Shown: positions 3,358 through 44,437 of the stretch, one piece after another | How the letters are laid out: the number at the start of each line of letters is the position of its first letter | Position numbering within the stretch: the first letter of the stretch is position 1 | From: Eledone cirrhosa | Taxonomy: Eukaryota | Direction of reading: 5' to 3' | Assembly (NCBI GenBank): GCA_964016885.1 | Contig: OZ024755.1 | Span: 27,094,001-27,158,000 of the forward strand | Length of the DNA stretch: 64,000 nucleotides | Notes under the pieces: generated by a model | What the model was told of the DNA's origin: nothing | The model's database searches: none | What the model saw: only the letters and a program-made list of their open reading frames with translations | Program-made: the position numbers and the translations under genes

Positions 3358-4254
3358 TTTCTTATTTTACATTCCATTCTTTCTTCTTAATAAAATACAT
3401 AAAATTTGAATGTCTTAAATATCAAAATTACTCAATATTCTTTCTGTAAAATAATATCTTAACTATAGACTAAGGCAATATTGGAAGAACTTGAATTCAG
3501 AAGTCAAAATCTAACCAGTTTAATTCTTTTTGGCAGTTTCGAAATCATGTAACCTCTTGTGTAATATGTTACCAAATATATTTGCACTGTTTTCAACAAA
3601 TATATCTACAGAGTTGCAAAAAGAAATCCTTTAGGGTAATTTCAGAAGTTGCTATTCTGTGGATAAACTTTTAAATTAAATCAGTTTTGATAGTTTTGCT
3701 ATGAAAGAGTAGCTGAGCTAGTTACGACTTCAGGCAATGAGAGAACAGGAATTCAGTAATTTTGATGTTGATGCTTGTATTTTAGAAACTCTTTCACAGC
3801 AGTACTAAAATATGTTTAAATATGATTGCACATATCATATTTAATGTATTTTGGCATATATTTCTATGATGTGTTGTAAATTTTCCAATTTTCTTTCATG
3901 TCTCAAATATGCAAAATAGCTTCTAACTAGTGATTTAAAATTATATTTAGGCATTATCATTTTATGTTCATTTTTCCATACTAGCATGGGCTGGAGGGCT
4001 TATTACAGGCCAAGTTAGTACTTAATTGGAGCTACTGTACTCGTAGACCAGCTGGTGGTCACATCTTGTTTTATTATTCATTGAGGCCTGACATCAGGGT
4101 TTTAAGGTTGACTGATCTTTAACAAAACATTAGTCAACCATTGGCTTTAGAATCCTGATACCCACCTTGCCAGATTGTGGATTGTGATATAATATGTTCT
4201 AAGGCAGGCTCATCCAACACCAACCAGTATAGAAAAAAGGCTGTCTTAAGTCAG

Positions 4255-4505
4255 AAGGCTTATTAGGCTGGTGCTTATCCCAGTTTCATGGCATGAAGTG
4301 ACTGAGAGTACAAGACTTCCCCCTGGACAAGACATCAGTCCATCGCAGGGTTAAACCCCCAGCCATTGCTGGTACTCATTTTTATACTGGAGCAATGTGA
4401 AATGAAGTGTTTTGCTCAACAACACAACACAACACACAACCCAGTCCAGGAATCGAACCCATAAGATTATGATTCTAAGTCCAACACCCTTACCACTAGG
4501 CCACG
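4255..4505 (-). mobile_element. tRNA-derived SINE with family-B-like head and a different 3' half
   Basis: Minus strand: TGGCCTAGTGG...GGTTCGATTCC, ttgagcaaaacacttcatttcacattgctccagt, then ccctgcgatggactg... Confidence 0.7.
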
Positions 4506-4914
4506 TTAATTGTTGATGTAGATAATGATGATGATGATGATGATGATGATTTCAGTAGTATAAGTTGTAAGCTCTAAACAGACTGTGTCTGTGATCCAGG
4601 TTTTATTTTTCCTTAAGTAGCTGTTTTGCTTTAGTCTGTTAGCCCTTTAAGCATTTAAACCAGCCATATCTGGCCAGGATTCTCTTCCCTCTTTCTGTTC
4701 AAACCGACTGTAACCAGCCTCTCATACTTTTCTCGTTGAATTATAGTAAAGTGGTTGAGTATATTCACAGATATTTTTCCTGTTAATATAATATCTTTAG
4801 ACATACTCAATGTGATGTTGTGTGACAAGCCTTTTGAATTACAGAAACAGTCTATGTGATAGGCAGTCACATGGGTTCTGTCAAATCTATTTTACCCACA
4901 AAGCTTTTCGCAGC

Positions 4915-5136
4915 TTAACCCTTTAGCATTTAAACCAGCCATATCTGGCCAGAATTCTTTCACCTCTTTTTGTTCAAACCAGCTGTAACCAGCCACATAT
5001 ACTTATATTAAGGTATTGTTCTCAAAATGAATAATGTCAAAATCTCATAGATTCAATATTACGTGAGATAATTATGTGAGGTAAAACCTTTACTGTGAAA
5101 ATATAATAGTACATATAGAGTAATGTAAAGGGTTAA
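4915..5136. mobile_element. piggyBac-type MITE
   Basis: Same TIRs and body, opposite orientation to the 1948 copy; a partial copy lies at about 4640-4727. Confidence 0.75.
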
Positions 5137-5886
5137 GGCTCTTCAGAAAAGTCCTGGCTATCACAATTTCCAACACTGGGTCATATTTAATCAAATAAGT
5201 AACTGTATGCTCTGTTTGGTTTGTATCATTTCTAGTATTGTTACTGTTTGCTAATTACAGTATCCTTTGTATATACAGTTTATATATAATTATCTTTTAT
5301 TGTTGTAATTAGTGTACACTTATCTTTTTGTAAATATAATTAGTGTGTAATTCTCATGTGTTTATATATATAATTGCTATTCAGCTGCACAAATATTATT
5401 AAAGAAGCTAGCAGATGATTTGTGCTAGACAATATAGCTTATGATATTTTCTTACATCATATATTTATGTATTTATCATGTTTTATATATCCCTGAAGGT
5501 TCTGAATCTCCATAGGGGTCAACTTTGTTCTCCCTCACTTTCTCTCTATCTCTCACTCTCTCCCTGCCTCTTTCTTACAATCTCTTTCTCCCACCTCTCT
5601 CTCTCTCTCTCTAAGGCACTCTCATCCAACAAACACCAGTATGGGAAAATGTGTTAAATGTTGATGATGATGATGAATGCAGTAGTATAAGTTTTAAACC
5701 CTTAACAAACTCTTTCTCTAACTCTTTCACTTTATCCCCCACTCCCCCTTTTCTCTCTCTCTCTCATTAATAAAGTAATGGTTGAGTACTTTGGTCAAGA
5801 GAATCATCTACATTAATCTCCCAAAAATGTGGGAAATTCTTATCTAAATAAAAGTATGTATGTTTGGAGTTGTGGACATACATGTA

Positions 5887-5918
<32 letters not shown>

Positions 5919-6139
5919 ATCATCATCGTTTAATGTCCATCTTCCATGCTAGCATAGGTTGGATGGTTTTGTTTCATTTGATACGGGAATGGTCGGGAGG
6001 CCGTGTCTCACTCGTACAGAAGTGTCTCTGTCAGGTTTTTTACAAATGGATGCCCTTCCTAACACCAGCCACATTTACAAGGGTATGTATGTAATAAACT
6101 GAAAGACAATCCATATGCCTGAGCTAGTTAGGTAGATTC

Positions 6140-6425
6140 TCTTCTTCTTTGCCCACTTATTCCTGAGAGGGTCATGAGGGAACAGTCCTCAACACTCCCT
6201 CCAGTGGGTCCTTCAGAACCAACCATCTCCAACTGATTCGGCTGGATCCCCAAGTTTTACCAGCGAAGCTCATGGATGGTATCCAACCATCTTGCTCTGG
6301 GCCTACCCCTGGGTCTCCTACCAGTTGGTTTTGCCTGTAAAATCTGTCCAGTGATTCTTTCCTGAGACATTCTAACCACATGCCCATAGTATCGGAGCTG
6401 TGATCTCTCAATCCGGAGAACATTC
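6140..6425 (-). mobile_element. RTE-like LINE 3' end, second family
   Basis: Homologous to 50220-50565 and 46740-47150. Confidence 0.7.
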
Positions 6426-6514
6426 TCGATGGTGTAATTTATGTGATTTAGTGAAATGTATATACAATTTATCTATTTATTTCCTGGAGGTGTGAATGCA
6501 GCATAGCTGAATGT

Positions 6515-6731
6515 TTAACCCTTTAGCATTTACATTACTATATATATTATTGTATTTTTGTGCTAAAGGCTTTAACTCATATAATAATCTCACTTAATAT
6601 CAAATCTATGCAATTTTGATATTATTTATTTTGAGAACAATAAGTATGAGCGGCCAGTTACAGCTGGTTTGAAAAGAAAGAGGTGAGAGAATTCTGGCCA
6701 GATATGGCCGATTTAAATGCTAAAGGGTTAA
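6515..6731. mobile_element. piggyBac-type MITE
   Basis: Perfect TTAACCCTTTAGCATTTA / TAAATGCTAAAGGGTTAA termini. Confidence 0.8.
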
Positions 6732-6969
6732 ACAACCCCTTAAAAAAACTAAAACAATGATATCCATCGCTGTCTTTGTTGGATCACTGGAATTAAACCA
6801 AAGTCTAACTGCAGCCCTTTGGACAAGGGAGGATGCACAGCAAGGGTCACTCATCACAAATAGAGTATATGTATCAATAATCTGTAAATACTCAAGAACT
6901 AGAATTTCTACAAAATGCGCAATGTTTTTTTGAGTAACATTTGCTGCATAGAAATTGTGCAGAAGCCCT

Positions 6970-8435
6970 TCATCATCATCATCATCATCATCGTTTAATG
7001 TCCATCTTCCACGTTAGCATGGGTTAGACGGTTTTGTTCCATTTGATGCGGGATTGGTCGGGAGACCCTGTCTCGCTCAAACGGAACTGTCTCTGGCTGG
7101 ATGCCCTTCCTAGCACCAACCACATTTACAGTGTGGACTGGGAGCCTTTTTACCGTGTCTCCTACACAACCACTTTACAGTGTGGACTGGGAGCCTTTTT
7201 AACGTGTCTCCTACACGACCACCTTACAGTGTGGACTGGGTGCCTTTTTACCGTGTCTCCTACACGACCACCTTACAGTGTGGACTGGGTGCCTTTTTAC
7301 CGTGTCTCCTACACAACCACTTTACAGTGTGGACTGGGAGCCTTTTTACCGTGTCTCCTACACAACCACTTTACAGTGTGGACTGGGAGCCTTTTTACCG
7401 TGTCTCCTACACGACCACCTTACAGTGTGGACTGGGTGCCTTTTTACCGTGTCTCCTACACGACCACCTTACAGTGTGGACTGGGAGCCTTTTTACCGTG
7501 TCTCCTACACAACCACCTTACAGTGTGGACTGGGAGCCTTTTTACCGTGTCTCCTACACGACCACCTTACAGTGTGGACTGGGTGCCTTTTTACTGTGTC
7601 TCCTACACGACCACCTTACAGTGTGGACTGGGAGCCTTTTTACCGTGTCTCCTACACAACCACTTTACAGTGTGGACTGGGAGCCTTTTTACCGTGTCTC
7701 CTACACGACCACCTTACAGTGTGGACTGGGAGCCTTTTTACCGTGTCTCCTACACGACCACCTTACAGTGTGGACTGGGAGCCTTTTTACCGTGTCTCCT
7801 ACACGACCACCTTACAGTGTGGACTGGGAGCCTTTTTACCGTGTCTCCTACACGACCACCTTACAGTGTGGACTGGGTGCCTTTTTACCGTGTCTCCTAC
7901 ACGACCACCTTACAGTGTGGACTGGGAGCCTTTTTACCGTGTCTCCTACATGACCACCTTACAGTGTGGACTGGGAGCCTTTTTACTGTGTCTCCTACAC
8001 AACCACCTTACAGTGTGGACTGGGAGCCTTTTTACCGTGTCTCCTACACGACCACCTTACAGTGTGGACTGGGAGCCTTTTTACCATGTCTCCTACACGA
8101 CCACCTTACAGTGTGGACTGGGAGCCTTTTTACCGTGTCTCCTACATGACCGCCTTACAGTGTGGACTGGGAGCCTTTTTACTGTGTCTCCTACACGACC
8201 ACCTTACAGTGTGGACTGGGAGCCTTTTTACCGTGTCTCCTACACAACCACTTTACAGTGTGGACTGGGTGCTTTTTGTCCACACAGTGGACGGAAATGA
8301 GAGGATGGGGTAGGGTGTAAGGGTGGGGCTTATATTGGGTTAAGAGGTGCCTACTGGCTGTAGGTTTGTATGCAAGGGAAGGCGGGTCTTCTGTACAACT
8401 GCATGGCGCCAAACATCTCGATCCAGTGACATTGA
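6970..8435 (-). mobile_element. RTE-like LINE 3' end containing an expanded minisatellite
   Basis: (CAT)n tail at 6970; 8300-8435 is homologous (reverse complement) to 38775-38900. Confidence 0.75.
7128..8277. repeat. 49-bp minisatellite, 23 full units plus a partial unit
   Basis: The unit acagtgtggactgggagcctttttaccgtgtctcctacacgaccacctt starts at 7128, 7177 ... 8255 (exactly 23 x 49). Confidence 0.97.
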
Positions 8436-8699
8436 TATATTTTTTCATTGTACTGTGTTGTTTACTTGTTATTTCTGTTTACTTTTTACATATATATGTG
8501 TGTGTGTTTCCTTATATTCATCATTTGTTTGTGTCCCATGACTTAGCAGTTCAACAACAAAAGATCAATAAAATAGTACCAGGCTCGAAAATAAAATACT
8601 GGAGTCAATATGATTGAATAAATCCTTTCGAAGCAGTATTTCAACATGGCCACAATACAATATAATGGCTGAAACCAGTGAAGGAATAAAAGAATATAC

Positions 8700-8931
8700 C
8701 TGTGTGTGTGTATATATGTATGTGTGTGTATAGATATATATGTGTGTGTATATATATATATATGTGTGTGTGTATATATGTATGTGTGTGTATATATATA
8801 TATATATGTGTGTGTATATATATATATATGTGTGTGTATATATGTATGTGTGTGTGTATATATATATATGTGCAAACCCATGCAAGCGTGGAACACGGAC
8901 GTTAAACGTTGATAATGATGATGTGTGTGTG

Positions 8932-8985
<54 letters not shown>

Positions 8986-9037
8986 TGTGTGTGTGTATAT
9001 ATACATGAGTGTGTACATGTGTGTTTCTGTATATATG

Positions 9038-9940: not shown

Positions 9941-10325
9941 TATATGAATTGTAATTACATAGTCAACTAAGAGGTTAGCAGTTCATATTGTCATCTTAAT
10001 TGAGACAGATGGATTAGATTTGGTCTTGGTTTTTGAGAATATTTCAAGGACTACATTCATCACTGTCATTAACATTTTCATGTCCACTTTTCCATGCTGG
10101 TGTATATTGGACAGGACTTTTCGAGTCAGTGTTTTATGGTTGGGAGCCCTTTCTCAAGCTTTTTATGAGTGGGAAATGGAAAACAAAATTTTATCAACAA
10201 TTGTTAGCGACTCTCAAGGAGAAGGGGATATGAATTTGGATAATTAAGTTAAAGAGTGATGTACTGAATGCCATACACAATATATTTTTGATATATATAT
10301 ATGTATGTCACGACAAAAAAACACA

Positions 10326-10779
10326 CAGTCCACGCTGTAATGTGGCCGTGTAGGCAACACGGTAAAAACCTCCCAGCCCCACACTGTAAATGTGGTTGGT
10401 GTTAGGAAGGGCATCCAGCTGTAGAAAACCCGCCAGACAGTCCACGCTGTAATGTGGCCGTGTAGGCAACACGGTAAAAACCTCCCAGCCCCACACTGTA
10501 AATGTGGTTGGTGTTAGGAAGGGCATCCAGCTGTAGAAAACCCGCCAGACAGTCCACGCTGTAATGTGGCCGTGTAGGCAACACGGTAAAAACCTCCCAG
10601 CCCCACACTGTAAATGTGGTTGGTGTTAGGAAGGGCATCCAGCTGTAGAAAACCCGCCAGACAGTCCACGCTGTAATGTGGCCGTGTAGGCAACACGGTA
10701 AAAACCTCCCAGCCCCACACTGTAAATGTGGTTGGTGTTAGGAAGGGCATCCAGCTGTAGAAAACCCGCCAGACAGTCC
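10326..10779. repeat. 112-bp tandem repeat x4 inside a LINE 3' UTR copy (10305-10885)
   Basis: cagtcc recurs at 10326, 10438, 10550, 10662 and 10774. Confidence 0.95.
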
Positions 10780-16844: not shown

Positions 16845-17030
16845 TAGAAATGGCTTCTGCAGGACTAGAACTGTTTCATTCGGGAGAAATCATCAGGAAG
16901 CCTGATGATTTCTCCCGAATGAAACAGTTCTAGTCCTGTAGAAGCCATTTCTAAATTAAATATTTATACTCTGCTATGTATTGAATACCTTACTTACTGT
17001 GGTTACCCCTGATTGAACCCAGGATAAACT
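16845..17030. mobile_element. Penelope-like remnant: fold-back palindrome with a hammerhead motif, followed by a tail ending in (TA)n
   Basis: Inverted arms of about 54 bp span 16845-16953. The minus strand reads GGCTTC-CTGATGA-tTTCtcccGAAt-GAAACAG..CTG(C)A-GAAGCC; the plus arm has CTGTA at the cleavage site. Confidence 0.7.
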
Positions 17031-21027: not shown

Positions 21028-22630
21028 CACTGTAAAGTGGTCATGTAGGTATCATGACAAAAACACCCAGTCCACACTGTAAAGTGGTCATGTAGGTATC
21101 ATGACAAAAACACCCAGTACACATTGTAAAGTGGTCATGTAGGTATCATGACAAAAACACCCAGTACACATTGTAAAGTGGTCATGTAGGTATCATGACA
21201 AAAACACCCAGTCCACATTGTAAAGTGGTCATGTAGGTGTCATGACAAAAGCACCCAGTCCACACTGTAAAGTGGTCATGTAGGTGTCACGACAAAAACA
21301 CCCAGTCCACACTGTAAAGTGGTCATGTAGGTGTCACGACAAAAACACCCAGTCCACACTGTAAAGTGGTCATGTAGGTGTCATGACAAAAGCACCCAGT
21401 CCACACTGTAAAGTGGTCATGTAGGTGTCACGACAAAAACACCCAGTCCACACTGTAAAGTGGTCGTGTAGGTGTCACGACAAAAACACCCAGTCCACAT
21501 TGTAAAGTGGTCATGTAGGTGTCATGACAAAAACACCCAGTCCACATTGTAAAGTGGTCATGTAGGTGTCACGACAAAAACACTCAGTCCACATTGTAAA
21601 GTGGTCATGTAGGTGTCATGACAAAAGCACCCAGTCCACACTGTAAAGTGGTCATGTAGGTGTCACGACAAAAACAGCCAGTCCACACTGTAAAGTGGTC
21701 ATGTAGGTGTCACGACAAAAACACCCAGTCCACACTGTAAAGTGGTCATGTAGGTGTCATGACAAAAGCACCCAGTCCACACTGTAAAGTGGTCATGTAG
21801 GTGTCACGACAAAAACACCCAGTCCACACTGTAAAGTGGTCGTGTAGGTGTCACGACAAAAACACCCAGTCCACATTGTAAAGTGGTCATGTAGGTGTCA
21901 TGACAAAAACACCCAGTCCACATTGTAAAGTGGTCATGTAGGTGTCACGACAAAAACACTCAGTCCACATTGTAAAGTGGTCATGTAGGTGTCATGACAA
22001 AAGCACCCAGTCCACACTGTAAAGTGGTCATGTAGGTGTCACGACAAAAACAGCCAGTCCACACTGTAAAGTGGTCATGTAGGTGTCACGACAAAAACAC
22101 CCAGTCCACACTGTAAAGTGGTCATGTAGGTGTCATGACAAAAGCACCCAGTCCACACTGTAAAGTGGTCATGTAGGTGTCACGACAAAAACACCCAGTC
22201 CACACTGTAAAGTGGTCGTGTAGGTGTCACGACAAAAACACCCAGTCCACATTGTAAAGTGGTCATGTAGGTGTCATGACAAAAACACCCAGTCCACATT
22301 GTAAAGTGGTCATGTAGGTGTCACGACAAAAACACTCAGTCCACACTGTAAAGTGGTCATGTAGGTGTCATGACAAAAAAACCCCCAGTTCACACTGTAA
22401 AGTGGTCATGTAAGTGTCACGACAAAAACACCCAGTCCACACTGTAAAGTGGTCATGTAGGTGTCATGACAAAAAACACCCAGTCCACACTGTAGAGTGG
22501 TCATGTAGGTGTCATGACAAAAACACCCAGTCAACACTGTAAAGTGGTCATGTAGGTGTCATGACAAAAAGCACCCAGTCCACACTGTAAAGTGGTTGTG
22601 TAGGCGCCAAGGTAAAAAAGCACCCAGCAC
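21028..22630. repeat. 47-bp minisatellite, about 33 units, with 376-bp higher-order periodicity, inside a LINE 3' UTR copy (about 20985-22802)
   Basis: Unit cactgtaaagtggtcatgtaggtgtcaYgacaaaaacacccagtcca; rare variants recur every 376 bp. Confidence 0.95.
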
Positions 22631-35442: not shown

Positions 35443-36671
35443 AATTATTTTTAATGTTAATTTGTTGAAATACCAAGTTATGGGATATAAACAAACATAA
35501 ACAAACAATAAATGTAGACATATCCCACCCCACATTCACACACATGACATGTTTCTGCACAGTTCCTACCTACCAAAGTTCATTCATTCACATAACATTG
35601 GTCAACTTGAGGCTGAAGCAGAAGACAACTTGCTCAAGAGGTGCCATGCTGTGAGACTGAACTTGAAACTACAAGGTTCCAAAGCAAACAGCTTCACCAC
35701 GCTACCATAAACTGTGTATCTTTACCAAATATCTTCTAATGATAAGAAGGAATATTATTCCTAATTTTATGTATTTAGAAACGTTTTTTTTTTCTCTTCT
35801 TTTCTCTTTGAATTCTTCCCTTCTCTCTCTCTCTCTCCTCTTTGTTGCATTGTGTATTCCTCAATATGTACAGTTATATAGCTGTTTGCAAATGACATGT
35901 ATAGGCATTATATTGCATGCCATTGTTTAGAGTTGCATTTTTTATAGGCTGACATCTTTGGGATTTCTTGTTTGTTTATTTTTTACTAAATATCTAGAAT
36001 CTTCTCCTCTCCTTATCCTCGCTTACCATACATTTTGAACAAAAGGAATCCAAATATATATATAAATATATATAAATAAAAATGAAAGTAAATAAACAAA
36101 TCTTCCAACAAAATTGACATAGAGATTGCATTTCAAAAAATCTTATATGATAATCTGAGCATTTGTGTGCCATCCTCCTGAAATACCAAATATCAGAGAT
36201 TTCTTTGGTTTGTTTAGAAAGAAAAGACAGAAGGGAGAGGGGTGGTAGCTTTAGAATAACATCAGTGGCTATAATTATTTGTTGTTGTTGTTATTGTTGT
36301 TGTCTTCAGTGTTTTGTTGTATTTTCTTCTGCTTGATTGAGAAGGAATATCTGAATTTTTTTTTAATTTAATTTTTTTTTTTTTTTTTTTTGTATAATGT
36401 TGAAAGTAGTTAATTTCAGAACAGCTAGAATATGAATGTCATAAAAAAAAAAAATGTGCTTGCTATTGTTGTTGGTTAGGTCTAGATTAACTGAGCAGAC
36501 CTGTAATCAAAGAATGTTTGTTATTACCATCTTTGGCATTAAGAAGGGCATCCAGCTGTAGAGATCAAGCCAAGATACAGAACTGTATGAGCAAAATATG
36601 GTCTCCAGACCTCTGACTTGCCTTATAACATGACAACCTGTTTAACCCATTCAAGCATGGAAAAATAGATG

Positions 36672-36707
<36 letters not shown>

Positions 36708-37122
36708 CTGGTCTTTAATTTTTCTTCCATATAGCTAAGACTAAAGCAGTCATTGTTGTGGAGATGTTTGAGCATTGGATATTTATTTGTGCCAGCTTTT
36801 TACACTGAATTCAAAACCTGCCAAGATCCACTTTGCATTTCATCCATTTATGGTTGGTAAAGAAAATACGAGCCCAGTGCTGGTCAAATCTTCTCTCCTT
36901 CCAGCTGTCACATCCTGGATACTCCGAGGTTTCAATAGAAGTGGGTAGGGTCAAGAGGGTGTCTGCATTTGCTTGTAACTGTATGGGCACCTAAAACCCT
37001 TCATGAAAGCATGGTGCAAGTCATAGTGGGTTGTGAGTGACAGTCGTTGGTTTACATCTAGAACTCATTACTGTATTTTCCTTTTTAAGATAGTGGCATG
37101 GAAATTATCGTCATTATCATAT

Positions 37123-37463
37123 GGAGGCACATGGCTTAGTGGTTAGAGCATTGGCCTTGCAATCGAAAGGTTGTGAGTTCAATTCTCAGACCGGGTGATG
37201 TGTTGTTTCCTTGAGCAAGACACTTTATTTCACATTGCTCCAGTTTACTCAGCTGTAGAAATGAGATGATAGGGACTGGGGTCCATATCATTCCACTGCA
37301 AAGTGGTTGTGGAGGTGCCACGGCAAAAAAGCACCCAGCACTCACTGTAAATGAGGTTGGTGTTAGGAAGGGCATCCAGCTGTAGAAATCAAGCCAGAAT
37401 CAGTTCCCGTCCCACCCTTGCAAGCCGGGAAAAGCGGACGTAAAATTATGATGATGATGATGA
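37123..37463 (+). mobile_element. SINE family B
   Basis: tRNA head, CORE-like ccttgagcaagacacttta, then gttaggaagggcatccagctgtag and (GAT)n. Confidence 0.82.
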
Positions 37464-37551
37464 TTGTCACAATTGTGTTTGAGGATAACATTGTGATGAT
37501 GATCGTATTTGTGGATAACATTCAATTGGTGTGAATTTACCACACGCACAC

Positions 37552-37582
<31 letters not shown>

Positions 37583-37945
37583 AGTACAATGGGAACTGTG
37601 AAAACAGATATATTACATTGAAGCTGGTGCAATAGCTGGTGCAATAGTTTGCCTGAAGTGAACTCTGATTAGCTGGCCTCTAATAGAAAGCACTCTTGCT
37701 ATGCTAATTGAGTCTCTTTATAGGTATATAGGCCTACATTATCTAATGTATCCTTTCCTTATATAAGATGGTAGGATGTGTTTTGAGGCATGAAGTAGCT
37801 GCTCTTTCCAGCAGTGTTGCATGCCTATCTAGAGGCTCACTTATTGGTTTCTGAAAATATTTCACCATCATTAGGGATATAGTAAAGTTAGGTGGTTATC
37901 AGAGAAAGAAAGAGATAGAGATAAAGTGGGAGAGGGATATATATA

Positions 37946-38275
37946 CATCATCATCATCATCATCATCACCGTTTTACGTCCGTTCTTCCATGCTAGCATG
38001 GGTTAGACGGGTTGTCCTGTTGTGGGCAGTGTCTGGTCGGCTGACCATGCCTTGCTCATACAGGAACTGGATGCCCTTCCTAACACCAACCTCATTTACA
38101 GTGAGTACTGGGTGCTTTTTCGTGGCGCCTACACGTCCACTTTACAGTGTGGGCTGGGTGCTTTTTTTGCCGTGGCACCTCCAATATAGACAATATGCCC
38201 CCACACCGGTGGGGGGTGTGGGGGCATATTGTCTATATGCTTCAGCTTGTACCCATGGGAGGTCGGGTACTCTGT
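37946..38275 (-). mobile_element. RTE-like LINE 3' UTR copy
   Basis: Near-identical to 23004-23345. Confidence 0.75.
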
Positions 38276-38337
38276 AATATGTTAATAAGACTGAAATTGA
38301 ACCATCAACTCAGTTGAGGTATGTCATACATCAATTC

Positions 38338-38409
38338 ATATATTTTATCTGATGAGGACGTACGGAAAAAACAGCACAGTACCTCCGAAATATATATAAT
38401 AAAACATAT
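38338..38409 (+). ncRNA. Minimal type I hammerhead ribozyme motif (copy 1)
   Basis: Stem I atatattttat/ataaaacatat (10 of 11 bp). Core CTGATGA at 38349-38355. Stem II GGAcGTAC/GTACcTCC. GAAA at 38387-38390. Two-bp stem III with a palindromic ATAT loop. Predicted AUA cleavage after 38398. Confidence 0.8.
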
Positions 38410-38601
38410 ATTTTGATTATGTAAATGTCTCCATTTATTAATATTTTGAATAATTTTTTCAACTCTTTCTGACATTCATTTGCATACTCACACATAACTT
38501 TGAATTACCCTAAATAAAAAAATTTGTCCACTATCCAGCGAACCTCCAACCGTCAAGTTTGTTTTTCTGCGGGTATGTCAACATTTATAAAACAAATTTT
38601 G

Positions 38602-38667
38602 TATTTTATCTGATGAAAGCGCACCAAAATTTGCCTTGGTTGCCCTTGAAATATATATAATAAAATA
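38602..38667 (+). ncRNA. Minimal type I hammerhead ribozyme motif (copy 2)
   Basis: Stem I tattttat/ataaaata (8 bp). Core CTGATGA at 38610-38616. Stem II AAGcGCACCAA/TTGGtTGCcCTT. GAAA at 38648-38651. ATAT loop III. Predicted cleavage after 38659. Confidence 0.78.
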
Positions 38668-38718
38668 ATTATGGTTTTATAAATATAGTTTCCATTTATT
38701 AATATATATATATATATT

Positions 38719-39222
38719 AGAAAAACCTGGGACGAGCTGATAAACTCCGACCTCACACACTTACACCTCTCCAAGACAATGTCACTGGACCGAGACCTTT
38801 GGCGGTACTCAGTAACAGAGAAGACCCGCCTTACCTAAATACATAGTAAAACCTACTACAGCCAGTAGGCATCTCTAACAAAATACCCCCCCCCCCCCCC
38901 ACCCCATCCACGCCACCCCGTTCTATGTAAAGTTATGTTGGTGCCGCGCCATCCAGGCCGAAACAAATGAGATCGTGTAGGTGTCACGACAAAAAAACAC
39001 ACAGTCCACGCTGTAATGTGGCCGTGTAGGCAACACGGTAAAAACCTCCCAGTCCCACACTGTAAACGTGGTTGGTGTTAGGAAGGGCATCCAGCTGTAG
39101 AAAACCTGCCAGACAGTCCTATGCGAGCAAGACAATCACTCTTGCCTCAAGTGGGACTACCCCCGTCCAAACCCATGCAAGCGTGGAACACGGACGTTAA
39201 ACGTTGATGATGATGATGATGA
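38719..39222 (+). mobile_element. RTE-like LINE 3' end (ORF C-terminus, 3' UTR and (GAT)n tail)
   Basis: 38719-38838 encodes RKTWDELINSDLTHLHLSKTMSLDRDLWRYSVTEKTRLT*, the RTE-type RKTW...DRxxWR C-terminus. It is followed by the UTR that seeds the arrays in this window. Confidence 0.78.
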
Positions 39223-39343
39223 TAACAAAGGAATTGTGGTAAGGAACCAGATGGACCATAACGCACCAGAGTACTCAATGATTAGTGTAGTAGAGTGGGA
39301 AATAGGAAACGGCTTGAGCTCTGCCGTCGGGGTCATACTTTTT

Positions 39344-39348
<5 letters not shown>
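39223..39348 (-). mobile_element. Internally deleted copy of the 17048-17257 element
   Basis: Shares gtggtaaggaaccagatggaccataa and gaaacggcttgagctctgccgtcggggtcatac; the palindrome centre is missing. Confidence 0.8.
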
Positions 39349-39389
<41 letters not shown>

Positions 39390-39744
39390 AAAGAGAGAGA
39401 GAGAGAGAGAGAATGACAAGCAAAGGAACAAATTACATATAATTCATGAATAGAAATTAATTATATGAAATTGCAATTTGCTGCTGCTTCCACAGTCTTT
39501 CCTCCTCCCCCCACCTCCCTGTTATAGTGTCTGGTAGCCGTCTATAACACATAGACTGGATACATGAGGGTCATAGACATTAGAACGTGACCCTCACTCA
39601 TTTAATTACACCATTATTGTCCTATAAAAAAGAAGAAAGGAAAAAAAGTATCCAAAATGTTACCCGGCACAATGTCAACTGACTTGGCTCCAGAAACTAG
39701 CTTTCAGGGGGAAATAACAAAAACATTGTTACTGCATTAATAAT

Positions 39745-39785
39745 AATGATGATGATGATGGTGATGGTGATGGCGGTGATGATGA

Positions 39786-39819
<34 letters not shown>

Positions 39820-39839
39820 GGTGGTGGTGGTGGTGGTGG

Positions 39840-39874
<35 letters not shown>

Positions 39875-40560
39875 GCGGTGATGATGATGATGATGGTGGT
39901 GGTGGTGGCGGTGGTACTAGTGGTGATGGTGATGGTGGTGGTACTAGTGGTGGTGATGGTGGTGGTGGTTTTGATGGTAGTAGCAATGGTGGTGGTGGTA
40001 CTAGTGGTGATGATGATGATGGTGGTGGTGGTGGCGGTGGTACTAGTGGTGGCACTGGTGGTGGTGGTGGTGGTTTTGATGGTAGTAGCAATGGTGGTGG
40101 TGGTGGTGGTGGTGGTACTAGTGGTGATGGTGATGATCGTGGTGGTACTAGTGGTGATGGTGGTTTTGATGGTAGTAGCAATGGTGGTGGTGGTGGTACT
40201 AGTGGTGATGTTGATGATGGTGGTGGTGGTGGTTTTGATGGTAGTAGCGCAGGTGATAATGATAATGATGATGATGATAGCATTGATGGTGATACTGATG
40301 GTGATACTGATGATGGCAATGATTTGGATGGTAGGAGCACTGCTGATGATGATGGTGGTGGTGATGATGATAATGTCAGTGATGGGGATACTGATGGTGA
40401 TAATTAGGATGGCAGAATCACTGCTGGTGATGATAGCGATGATGATAATGATGTTGATAATGATGATGATGATAGCAGCTCTGGAAATGGTTATGATGAT
40501 GGGGGCAGTGATGGTGTGTGTGTGTGACAGTGATACAGATGTTAATGGTGGTGATGAAAA
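39745..40560. repeat. GAT/GGT trinucleotide tract
   Basis: Direct inspection. Confidence 0.95.
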
Positions 40561-40872
40561 TAATGTATAATTACTTTCTCATGCTGGCATGAGCTGCCTA
40601 AGACCTTTTTTCATGCAGTGTTTTATGGCTGGATACTAATTCTTTGATCATAGGTTTGCTCCTCAATCAGACCTGACCTGGGGCTAAACAACAATAATTA
40701 CACTTAGGTCTTTTCAAATGAAACAATTGTTACTGATTGTAGCCATTTCTATGTTATATACTGCATTGGATTTCTAATGTCATAGTTATGATGACCTAAA
40801 TGGTTTTGCTTTCAGTTGCTTCTTGTGATGTGCAGCTAGTGTCGGATTTGGACAAATGAGGCCCTGTGCTAG

Positions 40873-41084
40873 TTAACCCGTTAGCATTCACCTTACTCTA
40901 TATTTACTATTGTATTTTCACAGTAAAGGCTTTACCTTACATCATTATCTCACATAATATTGAATCTACGAGATTTTGATGTCACTTATTTTGAGAACAA
41001 TACCTTATTATAGGTATGAGCATCCAGTTATGACTGGTTTGAACAGAAAGAGGTGAGAGAATTCTGGCCAGATATGGCCCGTTT
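40873..41084. mobile_element. piggyBac-type MITE, truncated
   Basis: Degenerate left TIR and family body. Confidence 0.7.
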
Positions 41085-43026: not shown

Positions 43027-43150
43027 GTATTTGACAGTGCCCCATCCAGTGAAATGACTGAGAAATTTGGGGATGTATTGCAGTTCTGTAGCCAAGTTGC
43101 AAAACTTATGGTTACTGAGATACGAAGGAGGGCATCTAATCAATCTACAG
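43027..43150 (+). CDS. WDFY3: WDFY3 coding exon (VFDSAPSSEMTEKFGDVLQFCSQVAKLMVTEIRRRASNQST)
   Basis: tttgcag acceptor and gtgagg donor; 124 nt; phase 0 to 1. Confidence 0.93.
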
Positions 43151-44437
43151 GTGAGGAATATAGCATTGGTTTTATTAACTCTTAACATCCTGTACCATAT
43201 GCAGCCACATTAGCAAGACGGCCTTGAAAAGTATAAAACAGCTCATTGATTACATCACATTAAAAATTTAATGTCTTTACTTTAGTTTACAACAAATGTT
43301 CTCAACAATTGTCCATTAGTAAAGATATTATAAACATTTGAATTAACAAGCTTCTTTCAAGATGTTTTTTGCTAAATAATTTCAGGATGTTAAGAGTTAA
43401 TAATCTAATCTTCATTGAGTGTGGGAAACAAAACATATTGATATTTTATAAAATATTTATCCCTGAATCCCCCCACCCCATCCCTTGCACAATCATGCCA
43501 ACATGGAAAGCCGGACACACCCCACAGTACCACCAGATATCATTTATTTTTCCCTGAGGCTACTCCTGCCTCTATGGAGTGGTAACAGGTAACCTAAGCC
43601 CCACTTTAACTCCCACCCCACTTCTTATCACTATGTTCCCAGCCTGACCAAGGTTACAAGTGCCCTAGTGTTGAAATATGATAGTACTGGTTCCACAATA
43701 AAATGTGCCCAGCCCACACTGAAATATGGAAATATATGTTTTTTTAATGATAAAAGGCACCCAACTTACTTCTAATGGGACAACCCACGTTAACGTGGAA
43801 AATGGACATTAAATGATGATGATGATATATACATGATCTTTATACAATACTTAAGAAATACGTTTGCTCATTAAGTTTAATGCTGCGACCATGGCTTGAA
43901 CTCAGAGAGAGGACAAACCACTGTGTCTATGCAATAACTAGGCAAATTCAGAATGACTACTCTCATGAGAAATTTTCTCTTTGAAGCTGCTGTTAGCTAA
44001 AGCACTGTTAAAGTATGAGGCTACCTCAGAGTGGAAAGTCTTTTACCTTTATTAGTAACTAGGTTTTTGAAATCTATTGGGAGGTTGCAAGACTTTATTT
44101 ATATAATTTACTTTTTCATTTGGTGTATAGTAAGGTTTGTATGTCTTTGATTCCAATATAGTGGCTGTTGTTTTTATTTATTTATTTTTTATTCATATCC
44201 TTTTAGAAACCAAGCCCCAAATGGTACATATGAGCAAGCCATGATCACCTAAATTGTCTAGCCTTAGAATGTGACAACCCATCTAACCCATGTAAGCATG
44301 GAAAACAGATGTGGAATAGTGATGACGATAATGATGATGTAGTTCAGTGATTAAATATAGTTTTCTTTTTAGCTTGCTGACAGCTTGAAAGTATAATTTT
44401 TGAAATTAATTCCATGTATACATTATCTTTATTACAG

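Follow-up and report, generated by a model that had tools for sequence, protein, structure and literature searches.

The hammerhead pair described here lies within a single 64,195-nt intron of WDFY3, on the plus strand and in sense orientation. The host gene was identified by tblastn with WDFY3 homologues, which puts the end of the first coding exon about 21.2 kb upstream of the window (the whole 64,000-nt stretch of DNA analysed) and the start of the next exon at about position 43027. Splice signals are present at both ends of the intron, and the downstream exon is 87.5% identical to that of cuttlefish WDFY3, which points to a cephalopod source, probably an octopus. An earlier note on this DNA, made from sequence alone, had claimed sense-strand placement in a WDFY3 intron about 4.4 kb upstream of the exon. 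The exon mapping confirms both points, the distance being measured to the 3' splice site. The pair is followed by the 3' end of an unrelated LINE-like element, which may be RTE-like; at another locus (L029) this repeat is preceded by an ORF with RVT_1 and PHD domains. Matches to contigs and RAD reads consist of repeat-family pieces; one contig matches the unique flank at 37590-37897 with one difference, and none extends across the locus to show either the junction or an empty allele. Elsewhere in the window, a tRNA-like match at 37132-37189, slightly below the Rfam threshold (28.1 bits), is probably the head of a SINE. Tandem arrays with units of 47-49 and 112 nt (7126-8277, 21028-22604 and 10325-10779) are kin to a common SINE-like repeat that also flanks the hammerhead pair.

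Features at the hammerhead locus, in window positions
Feature	Position	Strand	Basis
Family A stub: 3' pseudo-LTR end, Hydra-type Penelope-like (by sequence motifs), 5' side lost	38287..38453	+	best copies 94-98% identical
Hammerhead 1, type I minimal	38343..38404	+	predicted cut after 38398 (structure descriptor)
Parts of hammerhead 1	stem I 38343-38348/38399-38404; core 38349-38355; stem II 38356-38386; GAAA 38387-38390; H17 38398		
Family B stub: 5'-truncated 3' pseudo-LTR end, second Hydra-type Penelope-like family (by sequence motifs)	38454..38707	+	best copies 91-97% identical
Hammerhead 2, type I minimal	38602..38667	+	predicted cut after 38659 (structure descriptor)
Parts of hammerhead 2	stem I 38602-38609/38660-38667; core 38610-38616; stem II 38617-38647; GAAA 38648-38651; H17 38659		
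(TA)n run at family B end, likely insertion target	38702..38717	+	sequence; ends of B copies
3' end of LINE-like element with (GAT)n tail, unrelated repeat	38718..39223	+	91-95% matches in L011, L017, L029, L040
WDFY3 second coding exon	43027..43151	+	tblastn of WDFY3 homologues; splice signals

To recover the motifs we used a type I structure descriptor, a check that the earlier note had proposed, requiring the core, stem I and stem II. It returned exactly two matches in the window with both strands scanned, both on the plus strand. In each, a CUGANGA...GAAA...UH core is closed by stems I and II, with a stem I of 6 bp in hammerhead 1 and 8 bp in hammerhead 2, and a stem III of 2 bp carries a palindromic loop III. 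The fourth pair of stem II is a C.C mismatch in both. The motifs stand 261 nt apart at the positions first reported. They agree fully in stem I, core and stem III, and their stem II sequences differ and yet each pair. They were rightly described as Penelope-type hammerheads, minimal and of type I, whose loop III is palindromic. A loose sequence-only core pattern matched seven times in the window against a shuffle mean of 4.19, which is not above chance. Rfam covariance models, the other search suggested at the outset, gave 11 matches at E<=1 in 36000-41000, and no hammerhead family was among them. This miss counts against membership of the Rfam hammerhead families only. By sequence and structure both motifs are real hammerheads, and their cut sites are predicted. 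At 16863-16935 the window also holds another hammerhead-core-like sequence as a short inverted pair, one copy on each strand; it failed the stem descriptor.

The two motifs belong to two different dispersed families, A and B, whose stubs abut directly at 38453/38454 with no TA repeat between them, and the A stub stops at the usual 3' end of its family. A genome search with 38300-38720 gave 2980 first-look candidates, and the 40 scored match only 38454-38717, the window itself excepted. The corresponding search with 38270-38460 gave 720 first-look candidates, matching 38287-38457. When the A|B junction was used as the query, 1060 candidates were returned and, among the 40 scored, only the window spans the junction. 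Of 48 loci retrieved for an A or a B copy (L002-L020, L032-L060), one holds both families, on opposite strands; A followed by B on the same strand was not found in any of these 48. In local alignment the 261-nt stretches match each other only across about 75 nt around the ribozyme and, in addition, in a short 3' tail (78% over 50 nt). The earlier note had read the halves as diverged tandem units of a single 261-nt repeat. With so short an alignment, and with a separate dispersed family behind each half, that reading does not hold, and the copy-number search it called for finds the junction once among the scored candidates.

Copies of both families have defined ends. Of 32 A copies, 23 end on (TA)n at a fixed point and 7 run on into the element; for B the counts are 13 and 6 of 20. 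Fixed ends on (TA)n, or continuation into the element, are as expected of terminal and internal pseudo-LTRs, respectively. Many family A copies (L032-L060) begin no more than about 6 nt before the window copy does, which suggests a fixed 5' boundary and a unit of about 173 nt, in a sample chosen for matching the window's A stretch. Equal-scoring family B copies also recur at a spacing of 100-140 kb (G000:C1:217328197-217712316 and C3:74331396-74613760), suggesting large tandem segmental duplications or assembly duplication.

These results bear on whether the pair could be a two-unit retrozyme, or a tandem duplication, whose 261-nt RNA is released as a circle and inserted again. The spacing is near that of the 220-240 bp retrozyme units of corals, as given in the available part of the source (PMC7229834). 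Moreover, the joined cut ends would rebuild a complete hammerhead, since stem I is common to both motifs. However, the units are unrelated outside the ribozyme and tail, TRF finds no tandem array at the pair's locus, and each half has its own protein-coding parent. Together with a junction that is single-copy among the 40 scored candidates, this makes a retrozyme origin, or any origin from tandem units of one repeat, extremely improbable; the halves come from two transposon families.

The parents of both families retain pieces of coding sequence. Family B occurs as direct repeats 4094 nt (L021) and 3676 nt (L022) apart that bracket a broken ORF. The ORF remnant contains a GIY-YIG domain (PF01541, E 1.2e-5) and RWR, DKT, CxCX5C and CxH motifs, with a CxxC that is degenerate in L026. 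A Pfam search with the RT piece of B gave no match, while a protein search returned 87 relatives, mostly unnamed and 31-47% identical, with no clade label among them. For family A, the parent in L064 has RT and EN pieces upstream of A that are 60-66% identical to those of B, with CxCX5C, CxxC and CxH all present. A second locus, L061, shares the EN end and 3' UTR with L064 at 92-97%, again upstream of A. Thus, A is linked to an RT at one locus (L064) and to an EN at two (L064 and L061). A complete pLTR-ORF-pLTR copy of family A was not seen among the fetched loci, and the pieces of its ORF that were recovered do not include the part with the DKT and RWK motifs. In the window, no PLE ORF remnant of A or B was found, the tblastn matches reflecting an unrelated short repeat with which the query ends. 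Linkage to a PLE RT/GIY-YIG ORF, which the earlier note had advised looking for, is therefore present in the parents of both families. Directly behind the B element of L021 lies another PLE, distinct from B, at L021:7843-9675 on the minus strand; its RT and GIY-YIG frame is open over 611 aa.

According to the available text of Craig et al. 2021 (PMC8557442), the Hydra clade is marked by a C-terminal GIY-YIG domain, DKT and RWK motifs, a CxCX5C linker, an EN end with CxxC and CxH in place of CCHH, the presence of hammerheads and insertion at (TA)n. Its elements are generally shorter than 3 kb, and Hydra-1_Obim of Octopus bimaculoides is a listed member. Judged by their sequence motifs, A and B are Hydra-type Penelope-like families, with the RT of B assigned by motifs and a by-eye likeness to Hydra-1_Obim. 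In a search of the literature on octopus and cephalopod hammerheads, with subscription papers outside its scope, only Craig et al. 2021 was relevant by title and abstract.

Both families are part of a very large population. A tight pattern for this hammerhead sub-type gave 23,385 + 23,042 = 46,427 matches in 3.0 Gb, about one per 65 kb, and the reversed control gave none. Same-strand pairs with a spacer of 150-300 nt number 265 + 247 = 512 genome-wide. About 54 would be expected under random scatter, a figure on the low side, since the half-patterns are less strict than the full pattern. In the first 30 of the 512 pairs, all on contig 1, the spacer holds a TA run of at least 10 nt in 28. Both stems could be resolved in 16 of the 30, and 9 of these 16 pairs join different families (stem II identity at most 0.63). 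What sets the window pair apart is solely the lack of a TA run between the two stubs. According to the part of a review available (PMC6765202), new PLE insertions tend to fall within or beside earlier copies. Three same-strand hammerheads in a row are found at G000:C1:271492626-271493049 and C1:408010458-408011021, the first of which mixes families (L149, L150).

The earlier note had taken the pairing of both divergent stem IIs as what selection on structure would leave, and named stem II covariation among genomic copies as a check. Covariation is indeed present. Among 13 cluster representatives from 146 fetched copies, base pairing holds in 77 of 78 cells for stem II pairs 1-3 and 5-7, a count that leaves out pair 4 after it was seen unpaired. 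Shuffling, which ignores relatedness, gave a mean of 66.0, and none of 10,000 shuffles reached 77. The swaps, A-U/G-C and C-G/U-A, run across transposon families, and so do not speak for selection at this locus. Loop III fits T-RYRY-A in 46,427 of 48,104 genome matches and is self-complementary in 139 of the 146 fetched copies, a sample partly chosen by that pattern; mainly three self-complementary words are used. Covariation between families and a self-complementary loop III indicate that selection acted on the transposons. Measured against their family majorities, the window copies themselves show 2 changes in 167 positions for A and 4 in 254 for B, where overlapping loci may count a copy twice. 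One of the A differences, at position 38364, costs hammerhead 1 its ninth stem II pair, consistent with neutral decay, and hammerhead 2 has zero differences from the family B majority within the ribozyme. By this comparison, the window copy gives no sign of host selection.

Two further regularities are seen across the copies. All 146 have two mismatched pyrimidines at stem II pair 4 (C.C in 94, C.U in 48 and U.C in 4) while its neighbours covary; the position might serve as a conserved contact, either within the tertiary fold or with a protein. The loop III words divide into AU-rich and GC-rich classes and, by base pairing, the AU-rich words can cross-pair with each other but not with the GC-rich one. 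It is possible that these classes act as a code of dimer compatibility between families.

Because the earlier note proposed that the two copies form a cis-dimer and cut the pre-mRNA, we considered whether the pair is likely to cut. A cis double hammerhead can be drawn without a pseudoknot: the two motifs exchange their stems I, stem III has 8 bp, all of them A-U, and every pair forms. As a model, the proposed dimer stands. Under constrained folding it is about 12 kcal/mol better than two monomers. However, the double-hammerhead fold lies 14.6 kcal/mol above the unconstrained ensemble, and the dimer stem III has a pair probability of 0.01 when 341 nt are folded and of 0.0 in each of three longer contexts. 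Nearest-neighbour models leave out any help from tertiary contacts or proteins, and a degree of cleavage is therefore possible. Minimal PLE hammerheads are described as inactive as monomers and weak as dimers in the accessible portion of PMC4209133. For an Anolis PLE, the part available of PMC11167929 reports insertion in vitro without a need for cleavage and no RNA-seq reads starting or stopping at the cut site. Both the folding and the published low rates weigh against efficient cutting by the pair, and we estimate from the models and from these related elements that cutting in the WDFY3 transcript would be slow or absent.

It could still be argued that the pair has been exapted by the host, cutting the WDFY3 intron co-transcriptionally and tuning splicing or mRNA level, in the manner proposed for the intronic ribozyme of CPEB3 (PMC10919898). 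The sense orientation, the intact cores, the position about 4.4 kb before the 3' splice site and the drawable double hammerhead would all suit such a role. However, both copies are young and one A change weakens stem II. At the genome-wide density of the motif, two in a 64-kb intron need no special cause. The poor cleavage of PLE hammerheads even as dimers (PMC4209133) and the missing read ends in Anolis (PMC11167929), both from partial texts, also speak against it. We find exaptation very unlikely.

Taken together, our results make it probable that two Hydra-type stubs were inserted one after the other, the second nested in the (TA)n tail of the first, and that both are now passengers. Our verdict on the locus is that it is ordinary transposon debris, the tail ends of two very common Penelope-like families. 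Because no TA repeat lies between A and B, unlike in nearly all of the other examined pairs, we infer the order of events. Family A would have arrived by target-primed reverse transcription at a (TA)n tract, with its 5' side cut short. The family B endonuclease would then have nicked the same tract, and the truncated 5' end of B would have been joined to the last bases of A with loss of the intervening TA. The ribozymes themselves were probably shaped by selection in transposon RNA, where tandem pseudo-LTRs would dimerise via their palindromic loops III. As part of the WDFY3 pre-mRNA, the two motifs would be passengers, cutting slowly or not at all and without a host function.

The bare junction also invites a one-step origin, in which reverse transcriptase starts on B RNA at (TA)n and jumps to the normal start point of A RNA, so that a chimera enters as a single insertion. 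The exact usual 3' end of A does meet the truncated 5' end of B with no TA and one shared T, the families share stem I, the core and the 78%-identical 3' tail, and the two copies are similarly young (96-98% identical to their best relatives). However, nested insertion at (TA)n is common in this genome, as the examined pairs attest (28 of 30), and the term 'template jump' does not occur in the PLE papers searched for it. Retroelements ordinarily leave small deletions of the target at their 5' junctions, which likewise counts against a chimera. We therefore consider a one-step origin unlikely, and prefer sequential nested insertion.

As one of hundreds of accidental pairs, the locus carries little weight alone. 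However, at least 46,000 intact hammerheads of one sub-type, with 512 close pairs, make a useful genome-wide set. It could be used to ask whether PLE hammerheads cut host pre-mRNA in vivo, in which case introns should be poor in sense copies and sense pairs, and whether heterodimers between families are able to give rise to retrozymes. Such heterodimers are conceivable, given the stem I and core common to the families and the few self-complementary loop III words. That nested cross-family stubs form working heterodimeric hammerheads in host pre-mRNAs, seeding retrozymes through the excised chimeric RNA, seems to us unlikely, and at this locus the chimeric A-B unit has not been amplified, the window being its one instance among the 40 scored. 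If it were true, each excised chimeric RNA would regain one intact ribozyme on circularisation, a direct route to the birth of a retrozyme, and this one genome would hold about 500 natural test cases. The window pair would serve as a handy natural heterodimer construct.

The element class is already known, and A and B are further families within it. The comparisons that follow are with the parts of the cited sources that were available. With the Hydra clade, A and B share GIY-YIG, DKT (seen in B), CxCX5C, CxxC/CxH (the CxxC intact in A), a hammerhead near the 3' end and (TA)n ends. The hammerhead of Hydra-1_Obim has other stem I, II and III sequences, which makes A and B other families. B carries RWR where the clade has RWK, and its units measure 3.7-4.1 kb with other repeats included, against a usual length below 3 kb. 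The fixed C.Y mismatch at stem II pair 4 is absent, by eye, from the paired stem II columns of the listed Hydra motifs. The minimal hammerheads of Cervera and De la Pena 2014 (PMC4209133) are likewise type I, with a long stem II, a very short stem III and a palindromic loop; they too are scattered as single stubs and opposite-strand pairs, and are predicted to work as dimers. However, they have an extra unpaired base before stem II that neither motif of the window pair has, and the window pair, unlike those systems, is cross-family. The count for one sub-type here also exceeds the 4,000-9,000 given for coelacanth and Xenopus. Metazoan non-LTR retrozymes (PMC7229834; bioRxiv 10.64898/2026.07.22.740005) resemble the pair in being non-coding and in carrying two type I hammerheads on one strand, with a few hundred bases between them, and are, like both families here, related to PLE pseudo-LTRs. 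Retrozymes, however, are tandem repeats of one unit, whereas the window joins two halves that are unrelated outside the ribozyme into a pair without amplification.
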